From Synechococcus sp. UW140 (lineage in GTDB: Bacteria > Bacteroidota > Bacteroidia > Chitinophagales > Chitinophagaceae), in the NCBI GenBank assembly GCA_943371295.1, contig CALRUG020000001.1, positions 7,677 through 71,676 on the forward strand: a stretch of DNA of 64,000 nt, in the 5' to 3' direction. Positions within the stretch are counted from its first letter, which is position 1, and each line of letters begins with the position of its first letter. The notes below the pieces were generated by a model, which did not search any database, was not told where the DNA came from, and saw nothing but the letters and a program-made list of their open reading frames with translations. A program made the position numbers and the translations under genes. This document shows positions 37,113-57,208 of this stretch, piece after piece.

Positions 37113-37117
37113 CAAGC

Positions 37118-37148
37118 AAAAAATCCCGCACATAGTGCGGGATTTTTT
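37118..37148 (+). terminator. tRNA-Leu terminator
   Basis: AAAAAATCCCGCAC...GTGCGGGATTTTTT. Confidence 0.85.
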
Positions 37149-37320
37149 TATGGACACGACCGAAGCTTGCTTTAGGGAGTGGACAGAGAAAAATCCCAGA
37201 CTTGCGATGCAAGTGGGACTTTTTGCTTGGGTACGCCCCCCTCCTAGGAAGTCGGCGAAACGTAGTGGAGCCGACAATCCTGCTCTTCCTTGCGAATATC
37301 CTTTCATCAAAAAGACACAT

Positions 37321-37435
37321 AATTATTTCATCATATGATGATTTATTTATAACTTACTCATCCCAATTTATTCCTCCCCCAATTGTTAGTGTTTGTAAGT
37401 GTTTTACTGACCTTGGAATTTTATGTCTGGGAGTC
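37321..37435 (+). repeat. Diverged ~110 bp repeat, copy 1 (upstream of the ATPase)
   Basis: Shares colinear blocks with 40955-41065: AATTATTTCAT, ATGATTTA(T/G)TTATAACTTACT, CCCCAATTGTTA, TTTTATGTCT. Confidence 0.8.
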
Positions 37436-37472
37436 AGGGGGCAGTTCTGTAGAATAAAAATGATAATTAAAA

Positions 37473-39446
37473 ATGAGTTTTAAAATAATAGCAATAAGGC
37501 CATTATTTGGTATTAGTACAAAATATTTAAAAAACCTTGTGGCAGGTGAAGTTTATAATTTATGTAATGAATATACCCTTTTAAATAAAAATCTAATACC
37601 AGTCTCAATTGATGATGAAGTTTATTCAATTGAATATAAGAAGACCGTTCCTGATAATCTTTATTCTATTAGAAAAATAAACGGCGAAATTATAAATATA
37701 AATGTGTCAGCAGTTGTTGGCAAGAATGGAGCCGGCAAAAGCAGTTTAATGGATCTGCTGCTACACTCTGTTTTCGTAGTTTCAAACAATCTTGGCTTTG
37801 TAAATCCGAAAAGTTTTCTTGAACCTGAATCAAACACCGCCGAACAAAATGAGCAGCAAGCTTACAAAAAAGAGATAGAAGATATTAAAACAGGTTTGAA
37901 AGTTGAAATATACTATTTACTATATGATAAGTATTACAGACTTCTTATCTCAAATGGGCAATTCAACCTTACTTCATGTTTATCTGCAGATAAATATTCA
38001 TATTTTAGGGAGGATAACATTTCTATAAAAAATTATCAGGAGGTTAATAATTTCTTCTATACTATAGTAGTCAATTATTCATTTTATGCCCATAATTCTA
38101 ATTACAATAGTTTATGGTTGAAATCCTTCTTTCACAAAAATGATGGTTACCAATTACCAATTGTGATTAATCCTTTCAGGGATAAAGGGAATATGAACGT
38201 TAATTCTGAGACACTATTAACCCGTTCTCGTTTATTATCAAACATTCTAAGTATTGCCAACTATAAAAAAATCAACTACAAATCTGCAATAGATAAAGTT
38301 GAATTATACTTTGATAAAAATAAAGATTACAAGTTTCTGTCAAATGGTGAAATTCGGTTTAGTCATGGCTTTATTGAAAAGTTCAGAGCCCTTATCCTAT
38401 CTCCTCTTTATTCCAAGATGTTTGGAGAGTCTGTTTCATACCCAAATACAGATATACCCATAAAGGAATACGCAGAGATATACTTAATAAACAAGTTAAT
38501 TACCATTCCTTCTAAATATGAACCTTTTAAAGAATTTGACAAACGATTGGCCAAAGTAAAAGAACGGCCTGATAATTATGATTTAACACAAAGTGCTTCT
38601 AAGGCATATATTGATGACCTTTATGAAGACAGAAGCCATGTAACTTTAAAGGTGAGACAAACGCTTAATTTTCTGAAAGAAGATATATACAATTTGCCTT
38701 CCGATTTTACCTTTAAGAGCTATTTTGACATTGGCTCAGTTGTTCAAAAAATGAACAGTTTGAAAAGAAATGAATGGTTTACAGAATTGATTGACTATTT
38801 ACCGCCTCCATTCCTGTATAGCAGAATAAAATTCAAAGATAATAGTTATTTTGAAGATTTAAGTTCCGGGGAGAAACAAAAGATATATTCCTTGAATTCT
38901 ATCATCTATCATCTTAAAAACTTAGACTCAATCAATAAAAATAAATACCGAAATACTGAAAAAAAAATTTCGTCATATCAATCGGTAAACATGATATTTG
39001 ATGAAGTAGAACTTTATTATCATCCCCAGTATCAGAAAGAAACAATTTCAAGTCTACTCAATTTAATCAGAATATCAAACTTTAAGTATATCAAGAATAT
39101 AAACTTAATTTTCCTTACTCATTCCCCCTTTATACTTTCAGATATACCTATACAAAACACTATTCTTCTCACCATTGATAAGAAAACTGGAAGAAGTAAA
39201 TTAATAACGAAGAAAAAGCAGTCATTTGGGGCCAATATTCACGATTTGCTTACTGATAACTTCTTTTTAACCGGTACTTTAATAGGAGATTTAGCAGACC
39301 GGAAAATAATGAAATTAATAAACCAAATAAAAAAAGGTACGATTTCAAAAGATGATAAATTGCTTTTGAAACTTATTGGCGATACATTTTTAAAATCAAG
39401 TATAGAGCAATTCCAACTAAAAAATGATCAAGATACAAATCGATAA
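37473..39446 (+). CDS. ABC-type (AAA_21-like) ATPase, PtuA/Septu-like defence ATPase
   Basis: Walker A GKNGAGKS; signature LSSGE; Walker B IFDEVE..YHP; H-loop THSPF; C-terminal FGANIHDLL..NFFL. Confidence 0.85.
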   Translation: MSFKIIAIRPLFGISTKYLKNLVAGEVYNLCNEYTLLNKNLIPVSIDDEVYSIEYKKTVPDNLYSIRKINGEIININVSAVVGKNGAGKSSLMDLLLHSVFVVSNNLGFVNPKSFLEPESNTAEQNEQQAYKKEIEDIKTGLKVEIYYLLYDKYYRLLISNGQFNLTSCLSADKYSYFREDNISIKNYQEVNNFFYTIVVNYSFYAHNSNYNSLWLKSFFHKNDGYQLPIVINPFRDKGNMNVNSETLLTRSRLLSNILSIANYKKINYKSAIDKVELYFDKNKDYKFLSNGEIRFSHGFIEKFRALILSPLYSKMFGESVSYPNTDIPIKEYAEIYLINKLITIPSKYEPFKEFDKRLAKVKERPDNYDLTQSASKAYIDDLYEDRSHVTLKVRQTLNFLKEDIYNLPSDFTFKSYFDIGSVVQKMNSLKRNEWFTELIDYLPPPFLYSRIKFKDNSYFEDLSSGEKQKIYSLNSIIYHLKNLDSINKNKYRNTEKKISSYQSVNMIFDEVELYYHPQYQKETISSLLNLIRISNFKYIKNINLIFLTHSPFILSDIPIQNTILLTIDKKTGRSKLITKKKQSFGANIHDLLTDNFFLTGTLIGDLADRKIMKLINQIKKGTISKDDKLLLKLIGDTFLKSSIEQFQLKNDQDTNR

Positions 39447-40629
39447 TGTTCATCAAAGGAAACAAGAATACGAGATTGCAATAACTGATTTAGTTGCAAA
39501 CAGAATATTTGTATTGAAACAATCACTATCTCATTTAAATGGGGTGCCTGTTGATTTTACTACAGGGAGTTTTACTAGCTTTAAAGCAGTTACTAGACAA
39601 ATAGTGAATATTGTTGGTAATGTTATAAATATTTCAAAAGGCCATCAAGTTTATATTAATGAAATAAATAATTACCGTTCTAACCCTAATAACTTAGGCA
39701 ATATAAATATAGCCAATCTTATTCAGCTATGTGACTATTTATTGGCAAACAATGAGCAACAATTACGCAATCTTCTTGTGGAGGATGCAGTTAATTTAAT
39801 TAATCTTAATTCTGATATTTTAAATAATCATGGCCTCAATACGCAGCTAAATATTGAAATTATTAAGCTAGCATTTAATTACCAGAAATACGATGAAATC
39901 GCCAAGGAAATTAGAATATATTTTAGAGTAAATAATTTTACTAAGTTTTGCTCTTATTGCAATGCAGAACCAGTAACACACCAGACTAACTTTGTTGGCC
40001 AAGTTGTTAGATCTTATGAACTGGATCACTTTTATGATAAATCAAGGCATCCTCTTTTGGCCTATAGTTTATTTAATTTGGTTCCAAGTGATCACCATTG
40101 TAATGTTACGAATAAATCTACAACTGAATTTACCGATCAATACCATTTAAACCCACATCATATGGGCTATGCCGAACAATTCAGTTTTATCCCAATTGGC
40201 ATATCTACTGCCTTTGATGTAAACAAAATTGAAACTATTATTTTAGAGGCACAGGGTACATCCTTATACAAACAGATCAATGGACATAATCAATCAAATG
40301 AAGAACAAGGAAATTTGGGGAATTTAAATGTATTTAGAATCAGATCTAAATATTCAGACAAGCTGCATCTAGCCAGTACATTACTAAAACGCTTACATAA
40401 TGAGAATACTTACTTTAAACACTTAAAGAAATATTTGAAAAATCTTGATGGGATTGATAGAAAAAAAAACTATATAAAATGGTATGAAAAGGAATTAGAT
40501 GTTCAATTCAATTACATAGATTTTAACAATAAAGCATTTTCGAAGTTTTCCCGTGATATACATGATTATTATTTTCAGAATAATAAAACAAGATGGAATA
40601 GATATATTCTTGAATTAATAAACACTTAG
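39424..40629 (+). CDS. HNH endonuclease, PtuB-like, with long N-terminal extension
   Basis: CSYCN...LDHFYDKSRHPLLAYSLFNLVPSDHHCN; overlaps the ATPase stop (coupled). Confidence 0.82.
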   Translation: MIKIQIDNVHQRKQEYEIAITDLVANRIFVLKQSLSHLNGVPVDFTTGSFTSFKAVTRQIVNIVGNVINISKGHQVYINEINNYRSNPNNLGNINIANLIQLCDYLLANNEQQLRNLLVEDAVNLINLNSDILNNHGLNTQLNIEIIKLAFNYQKYDEIAKEIRIYFRVNNFTKFCSYCNAEPVTHQTNFVGQVVRSYELDHFYDKSRHPLLAYSLFNLVPSDHHCNVTNKSTTEFTDQYHLNPHHMGYAEQFSFIPIGISTAFDVNKIETIILEAQGTSLYKQINGHNQSNEEQGNLGNLNVFRIRSKYSDKLHLASTLLKRLHNENTYFKHLKKYLKNLDGIDRKKNYIKWYEKELDVQFNYIDFNNKAFSKFSRDIHDYYFQNNKTRWNRYILELINT

Positions 40630-40954
40630 TAAAGTGTCATTTACAAGACCAAATGAATAAGTCAGGCACGTTTCCAAAACACAGAGAAGACACATTTAAA
40701 GAAACTTTGCAAAAAAACCTGCTTTGTGTCAACATACAGTCAACAGATTAAGGTGATAAACATATCCAATTTATAAATCATTGGTATCAAGCACAAACAT
40801 CCGACAATAGGTTTTGTGAAATTGGGGCATGACCATAAAGTATTTATCGTAAGTACTTGCCCATGAAATGCATTTGTGGACACAAGCGTCTAAAGAATTT
40901 AAAGCTGAACAAAGTTCAGGGCATAGAATAAACTCTATACCATAATAAGCAGTA

Positions 40955-41065
40955 AATTATTTCATAAAATAATGATTTAGTTATAACTTACTTGGCTTAC
41001 CTATTCAACCCCAATTGTTACTTATTGTTAGTTTTTAAATGGTTCTTTATTTTATGTCTAGGAAT
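40955..41065 (+). repeat. Diverged ~110 bp repeat, copy 2 (upstream of the HEPN gene)
   Basis: Same block order and near-identical spacing as 37321-37435. Confidence 0.8.
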
Positions 41066-41124
41066 GCGTAATAAAGAGTTAAAAATGAATTCAAACTGAA
41101 ACACCCAAAAACTTAAAATATTTT

Positions 41125-42453
41125 ATGACACAATCGTACATTTTTGAAATACTAGCAATAGATAAAAATGGACAAACTAGTATCACAACAGGTGAATCAT
41201 TGGTATATGGGCTACTTTTCAGTGAATCACTATGGAAAAATAAAGAAGTTATAAAAATCTCTGATACCCAAAAAATAGTAGATAAGGAACAACAATTAGA
41301 ACTTAAATTTCAATCTGTTGATACAAGTTCGACATTAAATGATCTAATTGAAGCGGCATTTGTAATAAGAATAAAAGGAGAAAACTATACCCAATTAGAA
41401 ATATTTAGATATAATTTCCTTGTTCATCTAAGAAGAAAATTAAATTTTACTAACATAAGAATATTAAGAGATGATATTTCAACAAAAATTTCAAATGAAA
41501 TTTATCCATTAATTAATAAAGTGGAGAATTTACTAAGAAGATATTTAGTGAAGTTTTTCACCCAAAAGATTGGAGTTGATTGGTGGGAAGTAACAGCCCC
41601 TAGATTATTCACAGATAAACTAAATTCAAGAAAAGGGAATGAAAAAATATTTAGCAATGTTGTGGACACTGATGTTACTTTAATTGATTTTGACGATTTA
41701 GGCGAACTAATTTATAAACAAACAACTGGTTTTAATAAACAAGAAAATATTATATCGAGAGTAATGAACTCAAATACTGTTGATGAATTAAATATTTTGA
41801 AACAAGAATTACAAGGCAACTATACCAAATATTTCAAGGAAGCTTTTCAAGATAATAATTTCGAGAAGAAATGGAAAAGCCTATTTGAAATACGGAATAA
41901 AGTTGCACATAATAATTTGTTCATACACAATGACTTGGAAACGGCTATTCAACTCACTAAAGATTTAACAGAAATTATAAATTCAGCTGAATCTAGAATC
42001 GACGAATTCAAATTCAGCATTGAAGATCAAGAAGCTTTAAGACAAGCAACAATTGATGCTTATAAAGTAGCGGAAAATGAAATAGAAAATAATGAGAAAA
42101 CTTTGGAGCAGTTAGGAGTTAAAGTTGTAGGAAAAATTGAATTACCAAATGATGAATTTCAAAATAAAAATCAACTATTAATTATTACACAAGAGGATTT
42201 ACTTGAAGAATTAAATATTGCTGAAAGCAGAATTAATGATAGAAGTTATTTACCTTATGTTCCATTAAAATCATTTGTAACAAAAATATTAGGGAATAAA
42301 GGTTACTCCTATGGCCCTTCATATTCTTTAATAAATATTTTAAAAGAGAAAGGAATTATAGAAATATTTGATCCAGTTGATGTTAAATTAATGAATACAA
42401 TGGAATTTAATAATGGAGTCATTCCAAAGGGAATAAGAATAACAAGAAATTAA
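41125..42453 (+). CDS. HEPN-domain protein (R-x4-H), Swt1-like core with unknown N- and C-terminal domains
   Basis: ENLLRRYL...WW helix; TLIDFDDLGELI; catalytic-type IRNKVAHN. Confidence 0.78.
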   Translation: MTQSYIFEILAIDKNGQTSITTGESLVYGLLFSESLWKNKEVIKISDTQKIVDKEQQLELKFQSVDTSSTLNDLIEAAFVIRIKGENYTQLEIFRYNFLVHLRRKLNFTNIRILRDDISTKISNEIYPLINKVENLLRRYLVKFFTQKIGVDWWEVTAPRLFTDKLNSRKGNEKIFSNVVDTDVTLIDFDDLGELIYKQTTGFNKQENIISRVMNSNTVDELNILKQELQGNYTKYFKEAFQDNNFEKKWKSLFEIRNKVAHNNLFIHNDLETAIQLTKDLTEIINSAESRIDEFKFSIEDQEALRQATIDAYKVAENEIENNEKTLEQLGVKVVGKIELPNDEFQNKNQLLIITQEDLLEELNIAESRINDRSYLPYVPLKSFVTKILGNKGYSYGPSYSLINILKEKGIIEIFDPVDVKLMNTMEFNNGVIPKGIRITRN

Positions 42454-42578
42454 AATGAATGATTTTTAATATAAACATCCAAAATTTAGAATTAAAAGTA
42501 ATTGTTTAATCTAAAAAATTAATTTCAATCTAATTGAACTCTTTGATTTAAATAAACTAAAAAAATCAGATAAAAAGA

Positions 42579-44519
42579 ATGGACCCCTCAACTACCTCTA
42601 AAGATTTAAGGCTTAATAATGTCATCCAAGAAATTTATACTGGAGAGTATCAACTTCCCGAATTTCAAAGAGATTATATTTGGAAAGATGCAAATGTAAA
42701 AGGATTATTTGAATCTGTTTTACTTGGCCATCCAATTGGTTCTATTTTGCTTTTAGAATTGAATAAAGAAAATCCATTACTCGCATGGGTTAATTTTAGT
42801 GAAATAATCCCCCCAGAACAAAGACAATTTGAATATAATGGAACAGATAAAGTTCCTCCAAGGTTTTTAGTTTTAGACGGTCAGCAAAGACTAACATCAC
42901 TTAGTAGACTAACTAATGGCACATCAGAGAAAATTTGGTATTTAAATTTAAAGACTATTAAAGAAAGTTGGGAAAAAAATAATTGCCCAGAATCAGAAAA
43001 AGAACTCAAAGAATGGATTGAATTGGGATTAGATATTACAAGTGCACTTTCTAAACAAAATAAAACTGCAGACCAATTAAAAGATTTAAGAGGCAAAAAC
43101 CGAAAAATGCCTTTAACACTTTTATCAGAAAAGACAAGATTTACAACTATCTTAAATGAAGTTAGAGATGAGATTAATCAGACAGTAACAGAAAAGAATT
43201 ATGAAATAAAAAATCATACGAAATTAAAAATTAAAAAAAGTAAAAACGAGTTACAAGAAATAGTTAATGAAAGTTCCATTTGGCTTAAATTTTTGTCAGC
43301 GCCGATAAACCGTCTATTTGATAACTATTTTAATTATAACATGCCATCTGTAATTGTTTCAGAAAAAATGGGAATAACAGGTGTATGTAAAGTATTCACT
43401 AAAATTAATACTTCAGGTATCGCTTTAGGAGCATTTGATTTATTAGTAGCTGTAATGTACCCTAAAGATATACGCATAAAGCAAATGTTTGATGAAGCAA
43501 TTGATAAGTACCCTTTGATAAAAGTATTAGATGAAATTTCAAAAAGATACTTATTACAAACTATAGCATTAATGGCCGGAATTTCACCAAAAACAGCTTC
43601 TTTACCCGAACTGATAAAACCAAAACATATAGAAAATTTTTGGGATACGGCTTGTGAAGCCTTGGAAGAGGCATGTAATCAAATTGATTTAAACTGTGGA
43701 TCTGCTTTACAAAAAGGAACAGATAAATTTTTAGTATATTCCCCATTAGTAGCAAGTGTTGCTTGTATATTAAAAGAATTTCCAATAAACATAAAAGATG
43801 GAAGATTAAAATTACTTAGACAACATAAATTAAAAGCTTGGTATTACGGTTCTGGGGTGGCTGACAGGTACAGTGATGGAACTGATGCCAAACAAAATCA
43901 AGATATTAATGAAATGAGGTTATGGTTTAGTTCGGAAAACATGGAAACAAATATTCCAACATGGTTAAAAGAACTTTGGAGTGATTTTAACTCTTCAAAA
44001 AATGCATCATTAGGAAAAGCAATCATTTCCATGATAAACTTTAAGGAACCTAAAGATTTTTATGAAGATAAACCAGTAGGGCCTGCTTCGGTGGTACCGT
44101 GCGACTTGCATCACATTTTCCCCAAAGCTGCACTCCGAGAACAAATAATGGCAAAAAGACAAATAAATGATAAGGGTAAAGCAGAAAAAATTATTAAATC
44201 GGAATTTTCAGTAGATTCTATTTTAAACCAAACGTGGATTTTTTCAGATACTAATCGAAAAATTATCGCCGACAAATTACCATCTATATATTTAGAAGAA
44301 ATAATTACTCAATACGGAGGAAAAACATCAGGGAAAAAGAAATTATTAGAAATCATGCAAAGTCATTGTATAAATGCTGAGGCAGTAGAAGCATTACTAA
44401 AGGACGATTACGAAACCTTTATACTTGAAAGAAAAAAATCAATAATTTCAGAATTTAAAACAACAGGTTTTGTTCAAAATTTAATTGATCAAAAACCAAA
44501 TGACATTGATGATGAATAG
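42579..44519 (+). CDS. DUF262 (ParB/Srx-like NTPase) + C-terminal His-Me/DUF1524-like nuclease, GmrSD/SspE family
   Basis: YQLPEFQRDYIW; HPIGSILL; LVLDGQQRLTSL; F.KINTSG..L; C-terminal DLHHIFPK...SILNQT...TNRKI..K.PS.YL. Confidence 0.88.
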   Translation: MDPSTTSKDLRLNNVIQEIYTGEYQLPEFQRDYIWKDANVKGLFESVLLGHPIGSILLLELNKENPLLAWVNFSEIIPPEQRQFEYNGTDKVPPRFLVLDGQQRLTSLSRLTNGTSEKIWYLNLKTIKESWEKNNCPESEKELKEWIELGLDITSALSKQNKTADQLKDLRGKNRKMPLTLLSEKTRFTTILNEVRDEINQTVTEKNYEIKNHTKLKIKKSKNELQEIVNESSIWLKFLSAPINRLFDNYFNYNMPSVIVSEKMGITGVCKVFTKINTSGIALGAFDLLVAVMYPKDIRIKQMFDEAIDKYPLIKVLDEISKRYLLQTIALMAGISPKTASLPELIKPKHIENFWDTACEALEEACNQIDLNCGSALQKGTDKFLVYSPLVASVACILKEFPINIKDGRLKLLRQHKLKAWYYGSGVADRYSDGTDAKQNQDINEMRLWFSSENMETNIPTWLKELWSDFNSSKNASLGKAIISMINFKEPKDFYEDKPVGPASVVPCDLHHIFPKAALREQIMAKRQINDKGKAEKIIKSEFSVDSILNQTWIFSDTNRKIIADKLPSIYLEEIITQYGGKTSGKKKLLEIMQSHCINAEAVEALLKDDYETFILERKKSIISEFKTTGFVQNLIDQKPNDIDDE

Positions 44520-44737
44520 GGAACCAATAAACTAATTAGTTAATACAAAATATTTTGACCCTGAAATACTTAGGGGAAAAAGACTCATCTATAAACTAAA
44601 GAGCTAATTACTTGACAATATCTTACAAATCCAAATTGGAAGTTTGCAAATATTAAAATATTTGAATAGTAATATTTCACAAAAAGAATATTTTCTCTAC
44701 CAACAAAATCTATTTTTTCTAACCAAAGAAATACTTT

Positions 44738-44769: not shown

Positions 44770-44901
44770 TATTTTAATAACTAAATCCATATCTGAATTT
44801 ATATACAAAATCAGTAACCGCATAAATTGTTAATAATAATCTTAAAATATAGATTGATTTATTAAATAATGTCTATATTTTTGGATTTAAATGTCCAAAA
44901 A

Positions 44902-45213
44902 ATGAAGTCCAACTATACATTACTAACAGGTGACATCATAAGGCAAATAAGAGAGACCAAACAACTTCCATTAAGAAAAATAGCTGCAATACTTGACATT
45001 GATACTTCTTATTATAGCAAGATTGAACGTAATATGAAAAAAGCAACAAAAGAGCAAATCCAACAACTAGAATTCTTTTTTGAGTTAAAGAAAAACACAT
45101 TAATGATACCATATTTAAGTGAAAGAATCTATTTAGAAATATCGGATGAAGATTGTGCGGAACAAGTATTAAAAGTTGCAGAAAAAAAAGTTAAATACAA
45201 AAAAAGGAAATAA
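44902..45213 (+). CDS. XRE-family HTH regulator (controller-protein-like) leading the R-M operon
   Basis: IRQIRETKQLPLRKIAAILDIDTSYYSKIERN HTH; 5 nt from the first MTase. Confidence 0.85.
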   Translation: MKSNYTLLTGDIIRQIRETKQLPLRKIAAILDIDTSYYSKIERNMKKATKEQIQQLEFFFELKKNTLMIPYLSERIYLEISDEDCAEQVLKVAEKKVKYKKRK

Positions 45214-45218
45214 ATAAA

Positions 45219-46289
45219 ATGCAGAAAAAATTTAAGGTCATAGATTTATTTTCAGGCTGTGGAGGGTTCTCTTTTGGTTTTGAATCAGCAGGTTTTCATG
45301 TAATATTGGGTGTTGACAATGACAAAGCAGCATTAGAAACATTTAAAGCCAATCACAACAATTCAAAAACATTACTTGCTGACCTACACGAAGACCAAGC
45401 AATTGAGAATATAATTAACGAGGTAAAAGGTCATAAAATAGATGTAATAATAGCAGGTCCCCCTTGTCAAGGTTTTTCACTAACAGGTGCAAGGCAAAAA
45501 GATGATGACCGCAATAAATTATTTTACTCCGTATTTAAACTTGCAAAAAGATTAAAACCACAAGCGGTTATTATTGAAAATGTTCCGGGACTTGCAACTC
45601 TTTATAATGGTCAAGCAAAAGAAGCTATACTTGATGAATTTAAAAAAATGAAGTTAGCATCAAATTTCAAAGTACTATATGCACCTGATTTTGAAGTTCC
45701 ACAAATAAGAAAAAGAATATTTTTTGTTGGACTTAATTCAAAAATTGGAACATTTGAATTTCCAGATAAAGTTTTACCGCCAGAAAAGTATAATACAACA
45801 TCAATTGCAATTTCTGATTTACCGTCAAGAGAAGCTGAATTCGGTTATGAAGAAGATAAATATGATAAGCCACCTAAAAATGAATATCAAAAGAAAATGA
45901 GAAATGGTGCTAAAAAATTATTTAATCATGTAGCAACCAAACATACAGAACATGTCATCAATGTTATCGCTCAGGTTCCAGAGGGCGGTAATCATAAAGA
46001 TTTACCCGAAGGAGTTGGTGATAGTAGAAAATTTAATGAAGCTTGGACTAGATATCATAGCAATAAACCCTCAAAAACAATAGATACAGGTCATAGAAAT
46101 CATTTTCATTATAAATACAACAGAGTTCCAACTGTACGAGAAAATGCAAGACTACAATCCTTCCCAGATAATTTCATTTTTACTGGTTCAAGAACTCAAC
46201 AGAATAAACAAGTCGGAAATGCTGTACCACCGCTACTAGGCTTTCATATAGCAAAGCAGTTATTAAAATACTTAAATAAAAAATCATGA
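45219..46289 (+). CDS. DNA (cytosine-5) methyltransferase 1
   Basis: Motif I DLFSGCGG; motif IV GPPCQGFS; VI ENV; VIII QIRKR; IX-X RENARLQSFPD...GNAVPP. Confidence 0.96.
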   Translation: MQKKFKVIDLFSGCGGFSFGFESAGFHVILGVDNDKAALETFKANHNNSKTLLADLHEDQAIENIINEVKGHKIDVIIAGPPCQGFSLTGARQKDDDRNKLFYSVFKLAKRLKPQAVIIENVPGLATLYNGQAKEAILDEFKKMKLASNFKVLYAPDFEVPQIRKRIFFVGLNSKIGTFEFPDKVLPPEKYNTTSIAISDLPSREAEFGYEEDKYDKPPKNEYQKKMRNGAKKLFNHVATKHTEHVINVIAQVPEGGNHKDLPEGVGDSRKFNEAWTRYHSNKPSKTIDTGHRNHFHYKYNRVPTVRENARLQSFPDNFIFTGSRTQQNKQVGNAVPPLLGFHIAKQLLKYLNKKS

Positions 46290-47521
46290 ATATAAAGCTC
46301 AAAACAATTGATTTATTTGCAGGCTGTGGCGGGCTATCTGATGGATTTGAACAAACTCAATTATATGAAACACTTGCTTGTGTTGAGTGGGAAAAAGAAC
46401 CATGTAATACACTTGTAAATCGCTTGCAGAATAAATGGGGAATTAAAAAAGCGAATGAAATAGTTTTACATTTTGATATTCAAAGAATTGATGAATTAAT
46501 AAATGGATGGGATAATGATTTATTGTATGGTTCAAATCAGGGTCTGAAAAAAATCATCAATAAAAAAAAGGGAATTGATGTAGTTATAGGAGGTCCTCCT
46601 TGCCAAGCTTATTCTATTGCGGGAAGAATTCGGGATGAGAATGGCATGAACGATGACTATAGAAACTATCTTTTTGAGAGCTACTTAAAAGTTGTTGAAG
46701 AATTCAAACCTAAAGCATTTATTTTTGAGAATGTTCCTGGCATGTTAAGCGCAAAGCCTGGAGGATTATCTATAGTTGATAGAATCACGAAAGCAATTTT
46801 CAATAAAGGTTACGAAATAACTAATAACTTAAGAGACAAAGCCTTAATTGATTGTACTAAATATGGGGTTCCTCAGGCTAGGAAAAGAATGGTAATTTTA
46901 GGAGTAAATAGAGAATTAATAAAGGAACCCCCTCAAAATGCATTAAACTATTTCTATGATGTAATCTTCCCAATTTATCAGTCAAAAAAAATATCAACGG
47001 TTAAAGATGCACTTTTTGATCTTCCTAAACTACACCCACTTGGAGAACCAATAAAAATTGGGAATAAAAAATACTCCCATTCATTCGACAAATTCAAAAT
47101 TAGGAATCATGAACCTCGTATGCATAACAGAAGAGATGTAGAAACATTTGGCCTTTTAACGAGAGACATACAATCAGGTCAAAACAAGTATTCATCTGCT
47201 GAATCATTGAAAAACTTATATTATGAAATAACAGGGAAAAAATCAAACATTCACAAATACCACGTTTTAAAATGGAATAAACCAAGCAATACAATCCCTG
47301 CTCATCTTTATAAAGATGGCTTAAGGCATATTCACCCAGATCCTGAACAATCAAGGAGTATAACAGTTCGAGAGGCAGCAAGGCTTCAATCTTTTGATGA
47401 TGATTTTGAATTTTTAGGAAGTGTGTCAGATCAATACAAAATGGTAGGAAATGCAGTACCCCCAAAATTTGCAAAAGCAATTGGCTTTGCACTAAATGAT
47501 TTCATTAATAAATTTTACTAG
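46286..47521 (+). CDS. DNA (cytosine-5) methyltransferase 2
   Basis: DLFAGCGG; GGPPCQAYS; FENVPG; PQARKR; REAARLQSF...GNAVPP. Confidence 0.96.
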   Translation: MNIKLKTIDLFAGCGGLSDGFEQTQLYETLACVEWEKEPCNTLVNRLQNKWGIKKANEIVLHFDIQRIDELINGWDNDLLYGSNQGLKKIINKKKGIDVVIGGPPCQAYSIAGRIRDENGMNDDYRNYLFESYLKVVEEFKPKAFIFENVPGMLSAKPGGLSIVDRITKAIFNKGYEITNNLRDKALIDCTKYGVPQARKRMVILGVNRELIKEPPQNALNYFYDVIFPIYQSKKISTVKDALFDLPKLHPLGEPIKIGNKKYSHSFDKFKIRNHEPRMHNRRDVETFGLLTRDIQSGQNKYSSAESLKNLYYEITGKKSNIHKYHVLKWNKPSNTIPAHLYKDGLRHIHPDPEQSRSITVREAARLQSFDDDFEFLGSVSDQYKMVGNAVPPKFAKAIGFALNDFINKFY

Positions 47522-47522
47522 A

Positions 47523-48491
47523 ATGCTTTTTACAGAAAACCTAGAAGAAATAATCTTTAACAGACATCAACTTTTTCAAACTGATGAATTTATAGTTGTT
47601 TCTGGTTATCTGGGACCAAAACCTGTACAAAGACTACATACACTTCCATTTAATACTAGAGTAATATATGGCATGTATGGATCTGATGGAATACAAACTA
47701 ATTTACATGATGCTTTAATCAAGATCCAAAATCAATTTAATAACATAAACATATTCTACTCAGATTTACCTGTACACTCAAAATGCTATGTTTGGAGAAA
47801 TAATGGTCAAATTATTCACGCACTTGTAGGTTCTGCAAATTTCTCTACAAATGGCCTTACAACACCATTTAGAGAAATCCTTGCTGAGACAACTTTTGAT
47901 ACGTTTAAGCCTTTAAATGATTATATCAATCGGATACTTCAAAATTCTTATTCTTGTTTAGAAATTGTTGTAGTAGAAAAACAAGGCATTACTAATGAGG
48001 ATAATGAATGTAAAATGTCCCTTTTAATGGATGATGGTCAAACACATAATGCAAGTGGATTGAATTGGGGATATATGGCAAATGGTCAACCTGCAGAAAA
48101 ACGGGGAATAAATGATGCTTGCATACCGATTAGAATTGAACATTTAAGAATATTCCCAGATTTATTTCCGCAAAAACAAATCTACCCTATACAAGAAGAT
48201 GGAAGAGGAAGGGCCCAGAGACATAATGATGCGATTGAAATTTTATGGGACGACGGAATGAGTATGGAAGGATTGTTAGAAGGATCGCAACCGTTAGACA
48301 CCATACTATATCCTAAACAAATTAGTTCTTTCCCCTCAAAAAGTCAAATGGGTGAGTATTTAAGAAATAGAATCGGGGTCCCTTTAGGCCAACCTGTAAG
48401 GAGATTTCACTTGGATAAATACGGCAGGACTGATATTTCTGTTTCAAAAATTGGGGATGGAATTTATAAATTTGACTTTTCAGTAAAATAA
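47523..48491 (+). CDS. PLD-superfamily restriction endonuclease, NgoFVII/BfiI-like
   Basis: HSK..W...GSANFS PLD catalytic motif; C-terminal SGLNWG...IPI B3-like DNA-binding region. Start at ATG 47523, right after the MTase stop. Confidence 0.85.
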   Translation: MLFTENLEEIIFNRHQLFQTDEFIVVSGYLGPKPVQRLHTLPFNTRVIYGMYGSDGIQTNLHDALIKIQNQFNNINIFYSDLPVHSKCYVWRNNGQIIHALVGSANFSTNGLTTPFREILAETTFDTFKPLNDYINRILQNSYSCLEIVVVEKQGITNEDNECKMSLLMDDGQTHNASGLNWGYMANGQPAEKRGINDACIPIRIEHLRIFPDLFPQKQIYPIQEDGRGRAQRHNDAIEILWDDGMSMEGLLEGSQPLDTILYPKQISSFPSKSQMGEYLRNRIGVPLGQPVRRFHLDKYGRTDISVSKIGDGIYKFDFSVK

Positions 48492-48583
48492 AATGGTACC
48501 TAGCATATTTATATTTTGCTTAAATGATTAAAATATTTTAAAACTTACACAACTTTCAAAATTAATAATCACTTTCTCCCCCC

Positions 48584-49105
48584 TCACAACCTAATTTTAT
48601 ACACCCCAACCCCATTCCTCGGGATATCATTAATAATAAACTGTTCCCCCTCCTCCGCTTCCTCAATAAAACTAAAAGAAGACCAAGAACTAGGCAGCCC
48701 TTTAAAAAGCAACGTAAATTGAAGCGACTCATGGTGCCCATTGTATAAATGCTTCTCAGGCGCAATAGGAACACCAATAGCTTGTAACAAAGGCAGCCTA
48801 TCCTCAGCGTCATTACCCTTTAAATAAGTCTTAGGACTAATATTAATCCATCCACCTAAATTAAACCTAGGCTCAGCATAATGCGTGCAATGAATAATGG
48901 TTTGCTTTTCTACTTCAGGAACAGATACCCATTCCAATTGAACGATGGGTGAATTAGGTTTGATACAATAATCGTCCCCCACTAACTTCACTTCACCTTC
49001 CAACCCAAGAATACATTTATCCTTTATCTAAATAGGCGAATGCCCAAAACGCTTAATCATCGCCATTCGTATCGCACCTAAATAACTCTTCAAAAGCTTA
49101 TTCAT
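48584..49105 (-). pseudogene. Conserved-looking Bacteroidota hypothetical protein; in-frame TAG at 49028-49030 separates ATG 49105 from the body (or a short gene starting at TTG 49003)
   Basis: The minus frame reads MNKLLKSYLGAIRMAMIKRFGHSPI*IKDKCILGLEGEVK... continuously into the 139 aa ORF. Confidence 0.45.
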
Positions 49106-49111
49106 AATCAT

Positions 49112-49519
49112 TTATTTAGTTACTTTAATAACAGTTTCATCTAACACAATCTGATTAATAAAATCAATATTAGCCGGTATAAACAACACCAACGAGAATT
49201 CCGAAAAAGCCTGGATATAGTTCCCATTCACTTTACTAGACTTAGGAATCTGTAATACTTTTTTCACCAGGTTTGACTGATAATCAACATTCACCTGCAC
49301 TAAAGGAAAATCAAAAGACTGCTTTGAAAAATACTGAACCGTAGGGCTACTAAATACCAACGCAAGCGGTTTGGTAAAGTCTTTCTTTTTACGATAAGCC
49401 AAAGATTGGAAAATCTCTATTTCAGAGGAAGCCAGCTCACACTCAAGGGTAAAACTTTTTTTACGGTTTTTAACTACAACAGTTGTTGTTTCTGCAAAAG
49501 GGAATTTTAAATGCTTCAT
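49112..49519 (-). CDS. Divergent DUF192-like protein
   Basis: LECELASSEIEIFQSLAYRKK...LVFSSPTVQYFSKQSFDFPL aligns by eye to the DUF192 pattern VEIA.T..E...GLM.R...LF.F......FWMKNT..PL, but lacks several conserved residues. Confidence 0.5.
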   Translation of the reverse strand: MKHLKFPFAETTTVVVKNRKKSFTLECELASSEIEIFQSLAYRKKKDFTKPLALVFSSPTVQYFSKQSFDFPLVQVNVDYQSNLVKKVLQIPKSSKVNGNYIQAFSEFSLVLFIPANIDFINQIVLDETVIKVTK

Positions 49520-49675
49520 TGCGATTAGGTTTTAAAAGTTAATCGCACCAAGATGAAGAGGAGAAGCTTACAGCGCTTTATTTTGACTAAGTAGTCCTCA
49601 TCTCAAACACCACCGTGGACTCGCGTCTCGGTTGGTTTCTACTCACGTAGAATCTTGATGACAAAACAAAAGTAG
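49520..49675 (-). ncRNA. Putative structured 5' leader / ncRNA with two GNRA-capped hairpins
   Basis: TACTTTTG -7 box at 49667-49674; UUCUAC-GUGA-GUAGAA; long stem capped GAC-GCGA-GUC; GAGAUGA/UCAUCUU multistem; 8 bp stem abutting the AUG. Confidence 0.6.
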
Positions 49676-49739
49676 GAAAATAAACGATGTGAAGAATTAA
49701 GGGAAAGTTAAATCAAAGGGGGTGGCTGTGATCCCCCCG

Positions 49740-49769
49740 ATTACCATGGGGAGCAATTGTGGGGGATAT
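49740..49769. repeat. 30 bp direct repeat, copy 1
   Basis: ATTACCATGGGGAGCAATTGTGGGGGATAT; 29/30 identical to 51090-51119. Confidence 0.9.
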
Positions 49770-49877
49770 AGTGAAATTTAGAAATTAGTCTAATAATTGA
49801 GCCAATTAATACCCATAAATTTGGTTTCAAACAAGTGACTTCAAATATTTCAGTAACTTTAATACAAACATTAATGT

Positions 49878-50108
49878 ATGAAATACGGAGAAATTAGCAT
49901 TGACCCTGAAGTAATGAGTGGTGCTCCAGTATTTGCAGGAACCCGAGTTCAGATACAAACACTATTTGATTATATTGAAGGAGGTGAAGACTTAGCAGAG
50001 TTTCTAGACGACTTCCCTTCTGTTTCAAAAGAATCAGCTTTGGCAGTTTTAGAAATGGCAAAAAAATCGCTAACATCAGAGAAAATGCTTCATGAAAATT
50101 TTGCTTGA
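49878..50108 (+). CDS. DUF433 family antitoxin
   Basis: IDPEVMSGAPVFAGTRV...FLDDFPSV. Confidence 0.9.
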   Translation: MKYGEISIDPEVMSGAPVFAGTRVQIQTLFDYIEGGEDLAEFLDDFPSVSKESALAVLEMAKKSLTSEKMLHENFA

Positions 50109-50184
50109 CGAAAGTTTACCCAGAAAAATAAGACATGATTTTGGCAAAGATCATGATGTTTGGACTGTTCGAGATAAAGAATAG
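50092..50184 (+). pseudogene. Truncated DUF5615 (PIN-like) toxin
   Basis: MKILLDESLPRKIRHDFGKDHDVWTVRDKE*; typical N-terminus overlapping the DUF433 stop, ends after 30 aa. Confidence 0.8.
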
Positions 50185-50485
50185 ATTAGCTGCCAGTTAC
50201 TATAGCAGTATTAAAAGGGTCAGACAATAGATTGACTACACTACAAAAATTAATTCCACTTTTATTTCATAAGCTAAAAGAAGGAAATCTTCCCAATGTG
50301 ATAGAAATATTTTAACATGAGGATATTGATGAAAAATAGAGAAATCAGCCCCACTCCCCCTACACCCTATGTATCCAAACTTATTGATTGACTTCGAGCG
50401 TGGCAAAGAGAATTTTGATAACCTAATGGCCACATACGACCTAATAGAAACCTACTAGGAAAGAAAGAAGGATAAAAATTACATT

Positions 50486-50707
50486 TTATGCATTAGATGC
50501 ATCATTTGTTAAATCTATTTCTGTGTAATTAAAAATGGATACATCGTAATTCGCCAAAAGTTCCATAAAAGTCCTTTTAGTATATCCAGCAAGATCAGCA
50601 GCTTGACCTAAAGACAAATCTCCTTTTTCAAACAACTTTGCTGCTAAAAAAGTTTTAGCGTATCGCTCATCTAAGTCATCAGGTATTTGAAGTGTCAAAG
50701 TTTTCAT
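50486..50707 (-). CDS. UPF0175 family antitoxin
   Basis: LAAKLFEKGDLSLGQAADLAG...FMELL. Confidence 0.88.
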   Translation of the reverse strand: MKTLTLQIPDDLDERYAKTFLAAKLFEKGDLSLGQAADLAGYTKRTFMELLANYDVSIFNYTEIDLTNDASNA

Positions 50708-50931
50708 AATATAAATTTACAAATAGGGTCTTTAATGAATTCCTTCAAGTATACAAATATAGCCCTCAAAGATTCGGCAGTAACTGTTGGATAAGACTCA
50801 AGAATTTGTTTCTCAGTCCAACCAGCAGAAAATAATTCCAATACTAACTCTACAGAAATTCTAGTACCCTTTATGGTAGGTTTTCCAAGTAGAACTTGAT
50901 TATCAGAAACAATATGGTCTTGCCAATTCAT
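50704..50931 (-). CDS. DUF433 family antitoxin (second copy, C-terminus possibly rearranged)
   Basis: WQDHIVSD..VLLGKPTIKGTRISVELVLE...WTEKQILESYP. Confidence 0.88.
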   Translation of the reverse strand: MNWQDHIVSDNQVLLGKPTIKGTRISVELVLELFSAGWTEKQILESYPTVTAESLRAIFVYLKEFIKDPICKFIL

Positions 50932-51089
50932 AAAACAATTTACAAAATTTTAAAATTGCAACCACTAGACAAGATTAATACTTAAAAAAGATCATTCCGA
51001 CAAACTGAGCCACTTCCCAAATCCCAAAGCTCTAATCCCCCAACACACAAAGACCAATATTCCGGAAGCAATCAACAATGGAGTGTTTA

Positions 51090-51119
51090 ATTACCATGGG
51101 GTGCAATTGTGGGGGATAT
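51090..51119. repeat. 30 bp direct repeat, copy 2
   Basis: ATTACCATGGGGTGCAATTGTGGGGGATAT. Confidence 0.9.
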
Positions 51120-51284
51120 GAAAAAGAATAAACGTTATCTAACACGGTGGCTTTGATTCCCCCTACCCCTTAAGTACAAACACCTAATCTATTCCACCAA
51201 GCAATCCCTAGCTTCAAGCCTGAAAAAATAATTTTTCGAAAACTTCACATTTTGTGAACTTTTATTACATTTACAAATGAAACA

Positions 51285-51617
51285 ATGAAAATCAGGTTAG
51301 TCACACAACAATCCATTGAAGAATTCATTGAACAAAATGCTAATAGCTTGAATGGCTTTAGAACTTGGTTAACTCTTTTAAATTCTGCAAATTGGGAAGA
51401 ACCTTCGGACATGAAAGAAACATATAAAACGGCAGATTTATTAGGAAATGGGACTAATAGAGTGATTTTCAATATAGGGGGCAATAACTATAGAATGATA
51501 TGCAAATATCAATTCGGAGCTACGCAAGTTCATCTTTACATAAAGTGGATTGGCACACATTCCGATTACACAAAACTTTGTAAAAACAACAAACAATATA
51601 CCATTTCAACATACTAA
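51285..51617 (+). CDS. higB: HigB-family mRNA interferase toxin
   Basis: RVIFNIGGNNYRMI...YIKWIGTHSDY. Confidence 0.9.
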   Translation: MKIRLVTQQSIEEFIEQNANSLNGFRTWLTLLNSANWEEPSDMKETYKTADLLGNGTNRVIFNIGGNNYRMICKYQFGATQVHLYIKWIGTHSDYTKLCKNNKQYTISTY

Positions 51618-51627
51618 AATTCATCCC

Positions 51628-52077
51628 ATGACCCATCTACCCTATACCATCATCAAATCAAAGGCACAATACTATAAGTATTGTAATATTCTTGAAGCTT
51701 TGGTAGAAAGCAAAAAGAAAACCAAATCCATTCAGGATGAAATAGAACTACTCGAATTATTGATAGAAAAATATGATGCAGAGAATAGCAGCTTTACCAA
51801 TGCAGACCCTGTAGAGATTATCAAATCACTCATGACCGAACACAATATGAAAGCTGTAGACTTAGCCGAGCTTTTAAATGTGAGTGAAGGGCTGGTATCA
51901 GACATGCTGAAATATAAAAAAGGACTATCTAAAGAAACCATTCGAATTCTATCTCAAAAATTCAAAATCAGTCAGGAAGCATTGAATAAACCTTATGCAT
52001 TAAAACTAACTCCTCTTATCAAAATAAGAACCATAAAAAAACGACCCGCAGCCAGAAAAATAGCAAGGACTTTTTGA
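51628..52077 (+). CDS. higA: HigA-family HTH antitoxin
   Basis: ELLELLIEKYD; DPVEIIKSLMTEHNMKAVDLAELL...VSDMLKYKKGLS. Start at ATG 51628. Confidence 0.88.
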   Translation: MTHLPYTIIKSKAQYYKYCNILEALVESKKKTKSIQDEIELLELLIEKYDAENSSFTNADPVEIIKSLMTEHNMKAVDLAELLNVSEGLVSDMLKYKKGLSKETIRILSQKFKISQEALNKPYALKLTPLIKIRTIKKRPAARKIARTF

Positions 52078-53070
52078 TTACACGGCAACCCCACTCCCCC
52101 CAATCCTCAATAATTTCTCCGAAATATTTTTCAAATAATTCGCTTTTATATTTTCTCTTAGGAAAGAGTTGTTAACCATCTCAACAACCATAGGTTGCTT
52201 GACAATAAATTGCGCCAATATTCTTTCTGCTCTTTTAGGAAGGATAGACAGTCGTTTAGCAAGTTCTAAAAAATTGGGTCGTCCATAATATCCGTATTTA
52301 CTATAAAAGGCAGACTCATAATCTCCTTGATAGAGTTGCAATGCTGTATCCGATTCACCTGGACTATGAATGACAGTGCTTAATAAATCATAAGCAGGAC
52401 TTAACTGGTATTCACCATCCGTATTGCGGATCAAAGAAAAATTCTTAAGATGGGCATCCCCGTTTGAAAAGACATAATTAAAAACCACCAGTGTGAACAA
52501 ACGCTCACATGCGGTAATGGAAGCTGGTACGTATTGCTGAATCAGTTTTCCGATGTCTTCATAACTTCCCTGGTACTTAAAATTATCTCCATGGGTGCTT
52601 GAAGTCTTGCCGGATATTTGTGCAAAGTCTTCCTGTAAATATTTTGTGCCATCTGCAGCCAAATCAAATCGTTTAGTCAGATAAGCAGGCGTACCATCTT
52701 TAAAATATATAAGTACATTTTCGGCAGTAGGAATATTAAAAACCTGTTTAGCAATCTGCATAGTTAAATGCTCATTCTCTGGCACCTGATCAATCTGAGC
52801 CAACTGTTGGTAAGGTGGAATGGGTTTGAGTATATAAGTGCCTCCCCTTTCAGTCAGCACCAGTTCTTTATTTTCTAGCTTTAGTGAATACTTCAATTGT
52901 ACCCCTGAAATTGATAAGCGTTTACTATGCGCTTGAAAGTACGGGAGGTTCACATCTTTAGGCGTATCAAATGGCAATATGGGAGAAGTGCGTAACCCAG
53001 CAAACATTGTCTTCCTGCAGGAAAGACAATATCCCTCTTTTACTTCCTTATAACATCCCATGCATTGCAT
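52078..53070 (-). CDS. HipA-family kinase (HipT-like, C-terminal domain only)
   Basis: SISGVQLK; YILKP; NEHLTMQIA; YLTKRFD; QEDFAQ; NGDAHLKNFSL; LSPAYDLL. Confidence 0.92.
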   Translation of the reverse strand: MQCMGCYKEVKEGYCLSCRKTMFAGLRTSPILPFDTPKDVNLPYFQAHSKRLSISGVQLKYSLKLENKELVLTERGGTYILKPIPPYQQLAQIDQVPENEHLTMQIAKQVFNIPTAENVLIYFKDGTPAYLTKRFDLAADGTKYLQEDFAQISGKTSSTHGDNFKYQGSYEDIGKLIQQYVPASITACERLFTLVVFNYVFSNGDAHLKNFSLIRNTDGEYQLSPAYDLLSTVIHSPGESDTALQLYQGDYESAFYSKYGYYGRPNFLELAKRLSILPKRAERILAQFIVKQPMVVEMVNNSFLRENIKANYLKNISEKLLRIGGSGVAV

Positions 53071-53390
53071 TAGTCAATCGTTTTAATAGTTATAGCACCA
53101 ATCGTGTCTTCACCGGCAGTTTGCAATAGCCGAGTAAAATCATCGCGTTCATCTATTTTCAAGGTCCTACATTGGATATCCTTATTCACCCCTTCTGCCA
53201 ATAACCCTTGAAAAAAAGCGAATAAATGGTCTGATGTATATATGGGTTGGTTTTTGGGTAAAGTCAGACTTATTGCAGGTTGAGCATCATCATGATAATA
53301 AGCCAGATCATAACTAAAACTAAATTGACCCTCCCGATTTTTAGTCAAGTATCCTGCCAGTTTTCCATTGTTATAAACTGCTCCGGTCAT
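53070..53390 (-). CDS. HipA N-terminal (couple_hipA / HipS-like) protein
   Basis: AGYL...F.F.YD...ISLTLP...LFAFFQGLLAEG...DTIGAITI. Confidence 0.9.
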   Translation of the reverse strand: MTGAVYNNGKLAGYLTKNREGQFSFSYDLAYYHDDAQPAISLTLPKNQPIYTSDHLFAFFQGLLAEGVNKDIQCRTLKIDERDDFTRLLQTAGEDTIGAITIKTID

Positions 53391-53599
53391 GCATTAATTT
53401 TTTTAATAGTTACTACGATATCCAGTCCTAGTACCTCTACAATTTTTGCTAACGTTGAAAAGGAAGGATTGCCTTTACCGGATTCTAACTGGTAGATAGT
53501 TTTGGTAGTAACACCAGCCAATTCAGACAAATCCTCCTGTTTTAAAGAAAGGTCCACCCTTCTTTTGGCCACTAATTGTCCAATTTTAGCTAATTCCAT
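53387..53599 (-). CDS. HipB-like XRE HTH regulator
   Basis: RRVDLSLKQEDLSELAGVTTKTIYQLESGKGNPSFSTL. Confidence 0.9.
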   Translation of the reverse strand: MELAKIGQLVAKRRVDLSLKQEDLSELAGVTTKTIYQLESGKGNPSFSTLAKIVEVLGLDIVVTIKKINA

Positions 53600-53601
53600 C
53601 G

Positions 53602-53673
53602 GTATTATAATTCTTAATTACCCCAATATTAGGCAAAAATTTTCAAATACAAACAAAATAGGTATTATAATAC
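53602..53673. promoter_or_regulatory. Two 12 bp palindromic operators upstream of the hipB-like gene
   Basis: GTATTATAATAC (perfect, 53662-53673) and GTATTATAATTC (53602-53613), 60 bp apart. Confidence 0.6.
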
Positions 53674-53689
53674 TGAAATGAAGTTCAAC

Positions 53690-57205: not shown

Positions 57206-57208
57206 ATC

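Follow-up and report, generated by a model that had tools for sequence, protein, structure and literature searches.

Chromosomal hotspots of defence genes that are bounded by core genes have been documented well in Pseudomonas, E. coli, Vibrio and Acinetobacter, but to our knowledge hardly in environmental Bacteroidota. Such core defence hotspots lie between conserved core genes, have a tRNA or tmRNA gene at one flank and carry a highly variable, defence-rich cargo of low guanine-plus-cytosine (GC) content, and they are not tied to a single class of mobile elements (PMC10250203, PMC10121019). Here we describe the interval between a tRNA-Leu(CAA) gene and xylA in a stretch of 64,000 nucleotides (the window; contig CALRUG020000001.1, assembly GCA_943371295.1) from a freshwater Sediminibacterium (Chitinophagaceae, Bacteroidota), the HscB protein of the window being 92-95% identical to that of several Sediminibacterium metagenome-assembled genomes. 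We consider, with a probability of about 0.6, that the interval running from tRNA-Leu(CAA) and the conserved leader behind it to xylA represents, in the genus Sediminibacterium, a chromosomal defence hotspot and not a self-mobile island. In common with cDHS1 and cDHS2 of Pseudomonas aeruginosa and with the E. coli hotspots, it presents conserved core flanks, a tRNA at one of them and variable low-GC defence cargo. It differs from them in its freshwater Bacteroidota host, in a cargo that starts after a structured leader and not at the tRNA, in the strong co-orientation of this cargo, and in its small size (11-16 kb) with internal anchors, namely a riboswitch operon and the toxin-antitoxin (TA) pair HigBA. 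The type of region is already known; the new details are the specific locus, the leader and the riboswitch operon.

The left flank was clearly shared among related genomes, whose contigs are designated below with the prefix L. Nine close relatives kept mutS, an AlaDH/PNT-like gene, hscB and tRNA-Leu at 85-98% protein identity, and the same flank was found in more than 20 distant relatives. All nine had low-GC DNA after the tRNA, and the 10 kb downstream of it contained no island gene of the window and no xylA in these genomes. Eleven Sediminibacterium relatives shared both the mutS-hscB-tRNA-Leu flank and the leader, with a different cargo in each, mostly of defence genes; homology of the window DNA to these 11 extended past the tRNA as far as window positions 37448-37474 and then ended. 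At the other side, xylB, a methyltransferase gene and an M20-peptidase gene were syntenic with xylA in relatives L161-L167, with 91-95% identity for XylA. Exact-protein look-ups of hscB, xylA and mutS gave no match, and a metagenome scan with xylA returned only relatives of 72-84% identity and no island genes; the right flank was defined instead by protein search and contig look-ups.

Both flanks occurred on one contig in L164 (477 kb), which spans hscB to xylA in 11.2 kb in the order xylA, HigA, HigB, riboswitch, u135, u139-like gene, BglII nuclease, m5C methylase, Mrr-nSTAND3, OLD-type ATPase, cyclase-like gene, leader, tRNA and hscB. Identity between the window and L164 was 83% in the leader, 93% at the nucleotide level in the riboswitch operon (u139/u135), 94.6% in HigBA and 88% in xylAB, and nothing in window 37473-48575 matched L164 except a second copy of block B, the terminal part of the leader. 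With respect to L164, the window carried two extra segments, 49717-51140 and the HipBST module. A comparison of the interval across strains had been named beforehand by the first-pass annotation as the refuting test of its island; the interval turned out not to be identical, with swapped cargo that is also defence-rich in the relatives. The flanks are inherited, the left one comprising mutS, hscB, tRNA-Leu and the leader and the right one the riboswitch operon, HigBA and xylAB; the cargo between them differs in every genome examined and consists mostly of anti-phage genes. A census of 51 open reading frames (ORFs) from the islands of the relatives comprised GajA (Gabija, E=0) with a UvrD helicase, PtuA (1.6e-134), MvaI/BcnI and BsuBI/PstI restriction endonucleases, several methyltransferases, AIPR, two HEPN families, PIN_12, GmrSD_N and one IS110 transposase.

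Composition changed at the same place as homology. The GC content was around 41% to the left of tRNA-Leu(CAA), 27-33% across 37.5-48.5 kb, 33-39% from the defence cargo up to 53.6 kb (the xylA stop being at 53690) and 41-42% in xylA and xylB, with a decrease of 10-14 points exactly where the leader ends. This drop, together with a cargo of 11 kb without counterpart in any of the 11 relatives that share the flank (11/11), makes it barely credible that the interval is ordinary, vertically inherited chromosome whose odd composition reflects gene function and not transfer, even though the flanks, the riboswitch operon and HigBA are conserved across relatives as that explanation would have it. The 16.5 kb that had been taken as one island are in fact two parts: 11 kb of replaceable defence cargo and 5 kb of an older mosaic made of anchors and TA insertions. 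The swapped defence cargo, DNA of foreign composition, is only the segment 37473-48575; the riboswitch operon and HigBA beyond it are conserved right-hand anchors beside xylA in the relatives. Nor does the island start at the tRNA, as had been proposed, since the cargo begins about 360 nt later, past the conserved, structured leader.

The identity of the window to its relatives was that of a mosaic. With L163, HigA shared 98% identity and the HipBST module, which is absent from L164, 93% at the nucleotide level, as compared to 85% for xylAB; HipBST and HigA being closer to L163 than xylAB, TA modules seem to move between lineages. The mosaic identity to L164 and L163 indicated exchange between lineages, and conserved flanks with such a mosaic point to exchange at a chromosomal hotspot; the suggestion that the whole island is mobilised in trans found no support. 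Toward xylA, TA modules (HipBST and the DUF433 sets) have been inserted and are partly decaying. Growth by repeated capture and decay, also proposed in the first-pass annotation, fits the truncated toxin, the orphan antitoxins, the degenerate second block B and the two insertions specific to the window with respect to L164.

The leader itself was conserved in structure. Its three hairpins (window 37114-37320) lay at the same place in 10 relatives, with pairing kept and sequences differing among lineages: compensatory changes were found at 19 of the 38 pairs, and paired cells amounted to 93.5% vs. 40-48% in slid controls. An Rfam scan of the leader gave no known family; the hairpins may act as terminators or form a small structured RNA. 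In six relatives mutual homology continued for about 200 nt beyond block B, whereas in the window, L003, L004 and L164 it ended right after it. Block A, between the hairpins and block B, corresponds to the 3' half of tRNA-Leu from the variable arm to the acceptor end and is well kept in distant relatives: the copies in L019 (10815-10900) and L013 (10797-10928 and 15124-15187) matched the tRNA 3' half with 0/2000 shuffles doing as well. Block A of the window is homologous to these copies but too decayed to be recognised alone (431/2000 shuffles). The claim that the tRNA 3' end is not duplicated held for its last 18 nt, which are unique in the window even when up to three mismatches are allowed, but has to be amended by this decayed pseudo-copy.

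Neither an integrase nor a transposase domain was found in the 18 island ORFs tested (18/18), as the first reading of the sequence had stated. Relatives and viruses documented the use of the same tRNA by integrases. In L003, an integrative element bounded by a duplication of the 18-nt tRNA end sits between tRNA-Leu and the leader, with a defence ATPase beyond the leader. Three IMG/VR viral contigs carried the last 55 nt of tRNA-Leu(CAA) at 91-93% identity without the remaining tRNA (L171 6683-8039, L174 5525-7973 and L173 1466-1520), with a tyrosine integrase beside this fragment in both contigs checked (L171 and L174), an arrangement like that of attP. In L013, block A copies ending in CCTGTTCTGGGCAC bracketed an insert of 4.2 kb with Fic and histidine-kinase genes and no integrase. 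The tRNA-Leu site has been used by integrases in the past, and the present cargo is not bounded by attachment (att) repeats. The locus thus resembles islands integrated at tRNA genes by a tyrosine integrase in its position at a tRNA 3' end, in the elements of relatives and viral contigs that use tRNA-Leu(CAA) and in the pseudo-tRNA relic; it differs from them in that the window lacks an integrase and an intact att duplication, and in that its cargo is not bracketed by repeats.

Alternatively, the island could be what is left, after decay, of one or several integrative elements that targeted tRNA-Leu, accumulated there in tandem and later lost their integrase genes and far att repeats. The pseudo-copy of the tRNA 3' half in block A, the integrase-less insert of L013, the live example at the same tRNA in L003 and the att fragments of the viral contigs, with their adjacent integrases, would all agree with this history. 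We nevertheless regard it as unlikely: the relic is on the same side of the cargo as the tRNA, so that it does not bracket the island, nothing on the right matched it and no tRNA 3' repeat was found at the far boundary; in every relative, the variable junction comes after block B, about 180 nt past the relic; and L003 keeps its integrase element apart from the defence cargo, the leader standing between these two units.

Inside the cargo there was another, more diverged copy of block B. It was 73% identical to the first over 116 nt (blastn, E=1e-10 to 4e-10), independently matched the leaders of L003, L004, L005, L010, L030 and L164, and reached 75% against the L164 leader (window 40942-41032). 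With block B copies on both sides of it, the module formed by an ABC-type ATPase and an HNH nuclease is bracketed by leader repeats, and it looks like the latest addition, nearest the leader. This placement, the fixed junction after the leader and the orientation of the cargo, about 90% of whose genes in the window and the relatives point away from the tRNA, would also be compatible with an integron-like cassette platform, in which modules that lack promoters and share one orientation are inserted directly behind block B by a recombinase encoded elsewhere, with structured intergenic repeats as the module boundaries. Islands of the relatives held intergenic repeat families of about 130-220 nt, named X, Y and Z (L001 12092-18998, L010 11946-12165, L030 12101-12319 and L005 11215-18447); in L001 ORFs alternated with inverted-end repeats of about 200 nt, and all 13 copies of the three families were on one strand, that of the genes. 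Family Y has inverted ends of 18 nt (GCATTGGCRATRTGGCGG). In the window, the DUF433 segment described below is flanked by a direct repeat of 30 nt (49740-49769 and 51090-51119) and by a duplication of about 18 nt, GGTGGCTnTGATyCCCCC.

When the X and Y repeats were examined for an attC-like fold, it was significant solely for the X copy of L005, a long hairpin (z=-3.9); the X copy of the window did not fold in this way (z=0.1), the folding of family Y was not significantly better than that of shuffled sequences (z=-1.2), and the intergenic regions of the window were AT-rich and unstructured (z about 0). No integron-type (IntI-type) integrase was seen in the interval, in the remainder of the 64-kb window or in any of the loci compared, the modules are large and contain several genes, and Bacteroidetes very rarely have integrons (PMC9024848). 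A cassette platform appears distinctly improbable, and it would be a long shot to see in the leader the place where an orientation-specific platform for gene capture in Bacteroidota takes up its modules, with the newest module nearest the leader and transcription outward, analogous to integrons but built from different parts.

We thus favour the chromosomal hotspot. Integrases targeting the tRNA 3' half may first have opened the site, the pseudo-tRNA relic in the leader being their remnant; cargo would then have been replaced or added mainly through recombination of incoming DNA with the conserved anchors, and the duplicated block B around the ATPase and HNH genes suggests a tendency of new modules to be added at the end nearest the leader. 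Several points weigh against the hotspot reading. Homologous exchange is deduced from mosaic identity only, no recombination event having been observed directly, and no two genomes shared the same cargo with different flanks. The whole interval was spanned by L164 only, plus a near-identical partial copy (L165), all other contigs breaking off within the island. Site-specific recombination, by an enzyme whose gene is located elsewhere, could instead have left the block B duplication, the 30-nt and 18-nt repeats and the same-strand repeats of the relatives as its footprints. Finally, the putative defence function of the four modules was assigned from sequence, PDC-M62 is an unpublished candidate model, and the proposed abortive-infection role of the HEPN protein is a domain-level call only.

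Table 1. Features of the interval between tRNA-Leu(CAA) and xylA and of the integrative element of L003 (window coordinates unless indicated; functions of cargo genes are predictions).
Feature	Coordinates	Strand	Evidence and remarks
tRNA-Leu(CAA)	37029..37113	+	ARAGORN; Rfam tRNA 58.7 bits; left landmark
Conserved non-coding leader	37114..37472	+	Hairpins H1-H3, block A, block B; ~350 nt
Leader hairpins	H1 37121-37145, H2 ~37155-37186, H3 37201-37219	+	Pairing conservation; H1 terminator-like
Leader block A	~37224-37290	+	Decayed pseudo-copy of tRNA 3' half
Leader block B	37319-37452	+	Ends in invariant TCTGGGAGTCAGGGGGC
ABC-type ATPase, Septu PtuA-like (PADLOC PDC-M62A)	37473..39446	+	PDC-M62A 4.6e-38; PtuA 7.8e-15; AAA_15/AAA_21
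HNH-type nuclease partner, PtuB-like (PDC-M62B)	39424..40629	+	PDC-M62B 1.1e-22; PtuB 1e-4
Degenerate copy of intergenic repeat family X	40647..40775	+	nhmmer E=1.3e-23; family X occurs 3x in L005 island
Second, diverged block B copy	40955..41075	+	3634 nt after first; just upstream of HEPN gene
Stand-alone HEPN protein (predicted RNase, abortive-infection type)	41125..42453	+	HEPN_Swt1 31.8 bits vs. cut-off 27.5; Abi_2 weak
GmrSD/BrxU-like type IV (modification-dependent) restriction enzyme	42579..44519	+	GmrSD_N 1.4e-27; HEC-05 3.2e-25; BrxU 7P9K 2.4e-9
Helix-turn-helix controller (C) protein of restriction-modification operon	44869..45213	+	HTH_3 7e-6; PADLOC Control_protein 1.9e-5
m5C DNA methyltransferase, first	45219..46289	+	PF00145 2.7e-71; MTase_II 7e-118
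m5C DNA methyltransferase, second	46286..47521	+	PF00145 1.9e-59; MTase_II 1.5e-130
NgoFVII-family phospholipase D (PLD) restriction endonuclease with B3-like DNA-binding C-terminal domain	47496..48491	+	RE_NgoFVII 2.9e-34; RE_NgoFVII_C 4.5e-24
u139, orphan	48584..49003	-	Only 9 clusters known
u135, DUF192 fold	49112..49519	-	AF2 pLDDT 85; Foldseek 3PJY/3M7A TM 0.65-0.70
SAM-I/IV riboswitch	49569..49666	-	Rfam 58.9 bits vs. gathering score 41.1; model positions 1-99/99
Segment absent from L164	49717..51140	mixed	DUF433a, toxin remnant, UPF0175, DUF433b
DUF433a	49878..50108	+	Antitoxin-type gene
30-codon remnant of usual toxin partner of DUF433a	50092..50184	+	Read by eye, then stop
UPF0175	50486..50707	-	Antitoxin-type gene
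DUF433b	50704..50931	-	Antitoxin-type gene
HigB toxin (51285-51617) and HTH antitoxin HigA (51625-52077)	51285..52077	+	HigB_toxin 1.2e-23; HTH_3; intact
HipBST-like tripartite module: HipB 53387-53599, HipS-like 53070-53390, HipT-like kinase 52078-53070	52078..53599	-	HTH_3; Couple_hipA 4e-20; HipA_C 4.6e-43; intact
xylA and xylB	53690..56541	-	Core right flank; same downstream synteny in relatives
Integrative element of L003, 7.2 kb	L003 10643-17840		Tyrosine integrase (Bacteroidota-type; Arm-DNA-bind_5, SAM_5), AAA_25 protein, DUF4468 protein

The cargo on the tRNA-Leu side consists of eight genes on the + strand that make up four defence modules (37473-48491; Table 1). Pfam and PADLOC matches bore out the multi-layer defence island adjacent to tRNA-Leu(CAA) that had been claimed, and all four modules point away from the tRNA, also as claimed. 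From their domains, four defence layers with different targets are predicted. In the first module, the ATPase presented a Walker A motif (GKNGAGKSS), a signature motif (LSSGEKQ) and a Walker B motif (IFDEVE), and its gene shares an overlap of 23 nt with that of the HNH partner, which had no Pfam match and showed the motif ELDHF...NLVPSDHHCN by eye. The arrangement is that of Septu, in which a gene for an ABC-type ATPase (PtuA) precedes and overlaps one for an HNH nuclease (PtuB); the pair differed from Septu in scoring far better on the PDC-M62A and PDC-M62B models than on those of PtuA and PtuB, and in its longer proteins (657 and 401 aa vs. 386-545 and 216-250 positions in most of the matched PtuA and PtuB profiles). 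In other genomes the PDC-M62 and Septu calls mostly coincide, and PDC-x systems are unpublished candidates (PMC11811056). The HEPN protein (442 aa) combined the HEPN fold with an R-x4-H motif (RNKVAH) and belongs to an unnamed family with 848 cluster representatives at E<=1e-3, mostly full length, and 132 at E<=1e-30.

The third layer would cut modified phage DNA. HEC-05, the PADLOC model matched by this enzyme, is BrxU, which has been shown to defend (bioRxiv 10.1101/2024.01.29.577857). In common with BrxU/GmrSD, the enzyme is a single polypeptide of about 600 aa with a DUF262 N-terminal domain, indicated by GmrSD_N and 7P9K and by the motif DGQQR, and a putative C-terminal His-Me-type motif (DLHHIFP); the two motifs were read by eye, the second by eye alone, as Pfam DUF1524 was not detected at E<0.01. 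It differs in that the alignment to BrxU covers the N-terminal 100 residues only and in that its gene is immediately upstream of an m5C restriction-modification (R-M) system, which raises the question of self-compatibility. In the stretch 42579-47521, an enzyme of a family that cuts modified-cytosine DNA stands directly upstream of two m5C methylases; either host methylation must be tolerated or the enzyme would be specific for bulkier modifications.

The fourth layer is predicted to be an NgoFVII-type enzyme timed by a C-protein, with the host protected by the two m5C methylases, both of which carry the catalytic PPCQ motif. The restriction endonuclease presented an HKD motif (HSK...GSAN), and a PDB sequence search with it returned spurious matches to repeat proteins only. 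Judging by profile matches, a PLD nuclease and a B3-like domain together with cognate m5C methylase genes in one operon place the system in the NgoFVII family of type II R-M, from which it differs in having a C-protein. The related CglI and NgoAVII systems have a helicase-like partner gene; such a gene is absent from the operon of the window. A perfect inverted repeat of 9 bp, GTCTTAATA...TATTAAGAC (window 44741-44768), is located 100 nt upstream of the controller gene and might serve either as a terminator for the gene before it or as an operator for the C-protein. A scan of viral contigs did not find the ATPase, the HEPN protein or the block B motif, and a tblastn search of plasmids gave only distant homologues of 25-36% identity.

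The count of five TA loci in the first-pass annotation stood in part: HigBA and HipBST are intact, the two DUF433/UPF0175 sets have antitoxins only (one with a truncated toxin), and the fifth is the riboswitch operon. HigBA was kept beside xylA in L164, where HigB was 99% identical in amino acids. The target of HipBST in E. coli is TrpS. In the module of the window, as in HipBST, the genes follow the order hipB-hipS-hipT with sizes of 70, 106 and 330 aa, HipT lacks the N-terminal domain of HipA, which HipS supplies, and the kinase is nearer to HipT than to HipA (PMC6581861, PMC10627512): it matched HipT(Lp) 8EZR at 1e-30 and HipT of E. coli O127 (7AB3) at 6e-22 as compared to 1e-8 for HipA. 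The similarity to known HipT is, in contrast, only of the order of 1e-30. Neither of the DUF433 sets had an intact toxin adjoining its antitoxin. The 30-codon remnant gave no Pfam or NCBIfam match, and no toxin ORF was present downstream of UPF0175, where a DUF3368/PIN remnant was sought in three frames and not found.

In the riboswitch operon, the SAM-I/IV riboswitch lies 50 nt before the start codon of u135, on the same strand, and is kept in L162, L164 and L165; u135 has around 35 known relatives. The pair u135/u139 (49519-48584) was rejected as a TA pair because of the riboswitch, the DUF192 fold and its conservation as an anchor. The operon (window 48584-49666, L164 9854-10870, L162 13960-14386) directly adjoined m5C R-M genes both in the window and in L164; elsewhere, a homologue of u135 was next to a Vsr-AIPR-DUF4420-Z1 cluster, and a distant u139 homologue came after a WYL regulator. 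One may speculate on a role in the supply of S-adenosylmethionine (SAM) or in sensing its loss.

A C-rich motif, approximately (A)ACAC..GGCTnTAATCCCCCC(TACCCC), recurred where TA modules and anchors meet, on the same strand in every case (window 48578, 49733, 50356, 51037, 51159 and 52096; L164 8850, 9788, 10876 and 10894; also in L161-L163), and 15 of the 27 C5+ runs of the window were inside the 15-kb island. Beside xylA, sister lineages had other TA or Abi modules: L161-L163 carried a Panacea-domain HTH protein with a 114-aa partner and a Thiamine_BP gene (11428-12863 in L161 coordinates), and L166 carried AbiEii and DUF6088 (8290-9823), together with an rve transposase and HepT/MNT. To the right of xylB there was a second low-GC stretch (31%; window 56576-59701) with a SAM-dependent methyltransferase, a 708-aa protein without Pfam domain and a 115-aa protein. 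A second island in this region (56.5-59.7 kb) was rejected, the same genes being syntenic in L161-L164; they were very divergent (55-57% aa identity vs. 85-92% for their neighbours) and are fast-evolving core genes, not an island.

The locus provides a clean and small example of a defence hotspot with both anchors defined. With primers or probes on hscB or the leader, paired with others on the riboswitch operon or xylA, it would be possible to retrieve the defence repertoire from any strain or metagenome of Sediminibacterium. Three candidates are highlighted by this work: the 442-aa HEPN family, with its roughly 850 clusters, the long variant of PDC-M62, and the DUF192/orphan pair under the control of a SAM riboswitch, which recurs beside restriction genes. 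If it is true that the leader directs insertion, this would constitute a new mechanism of gene capture.

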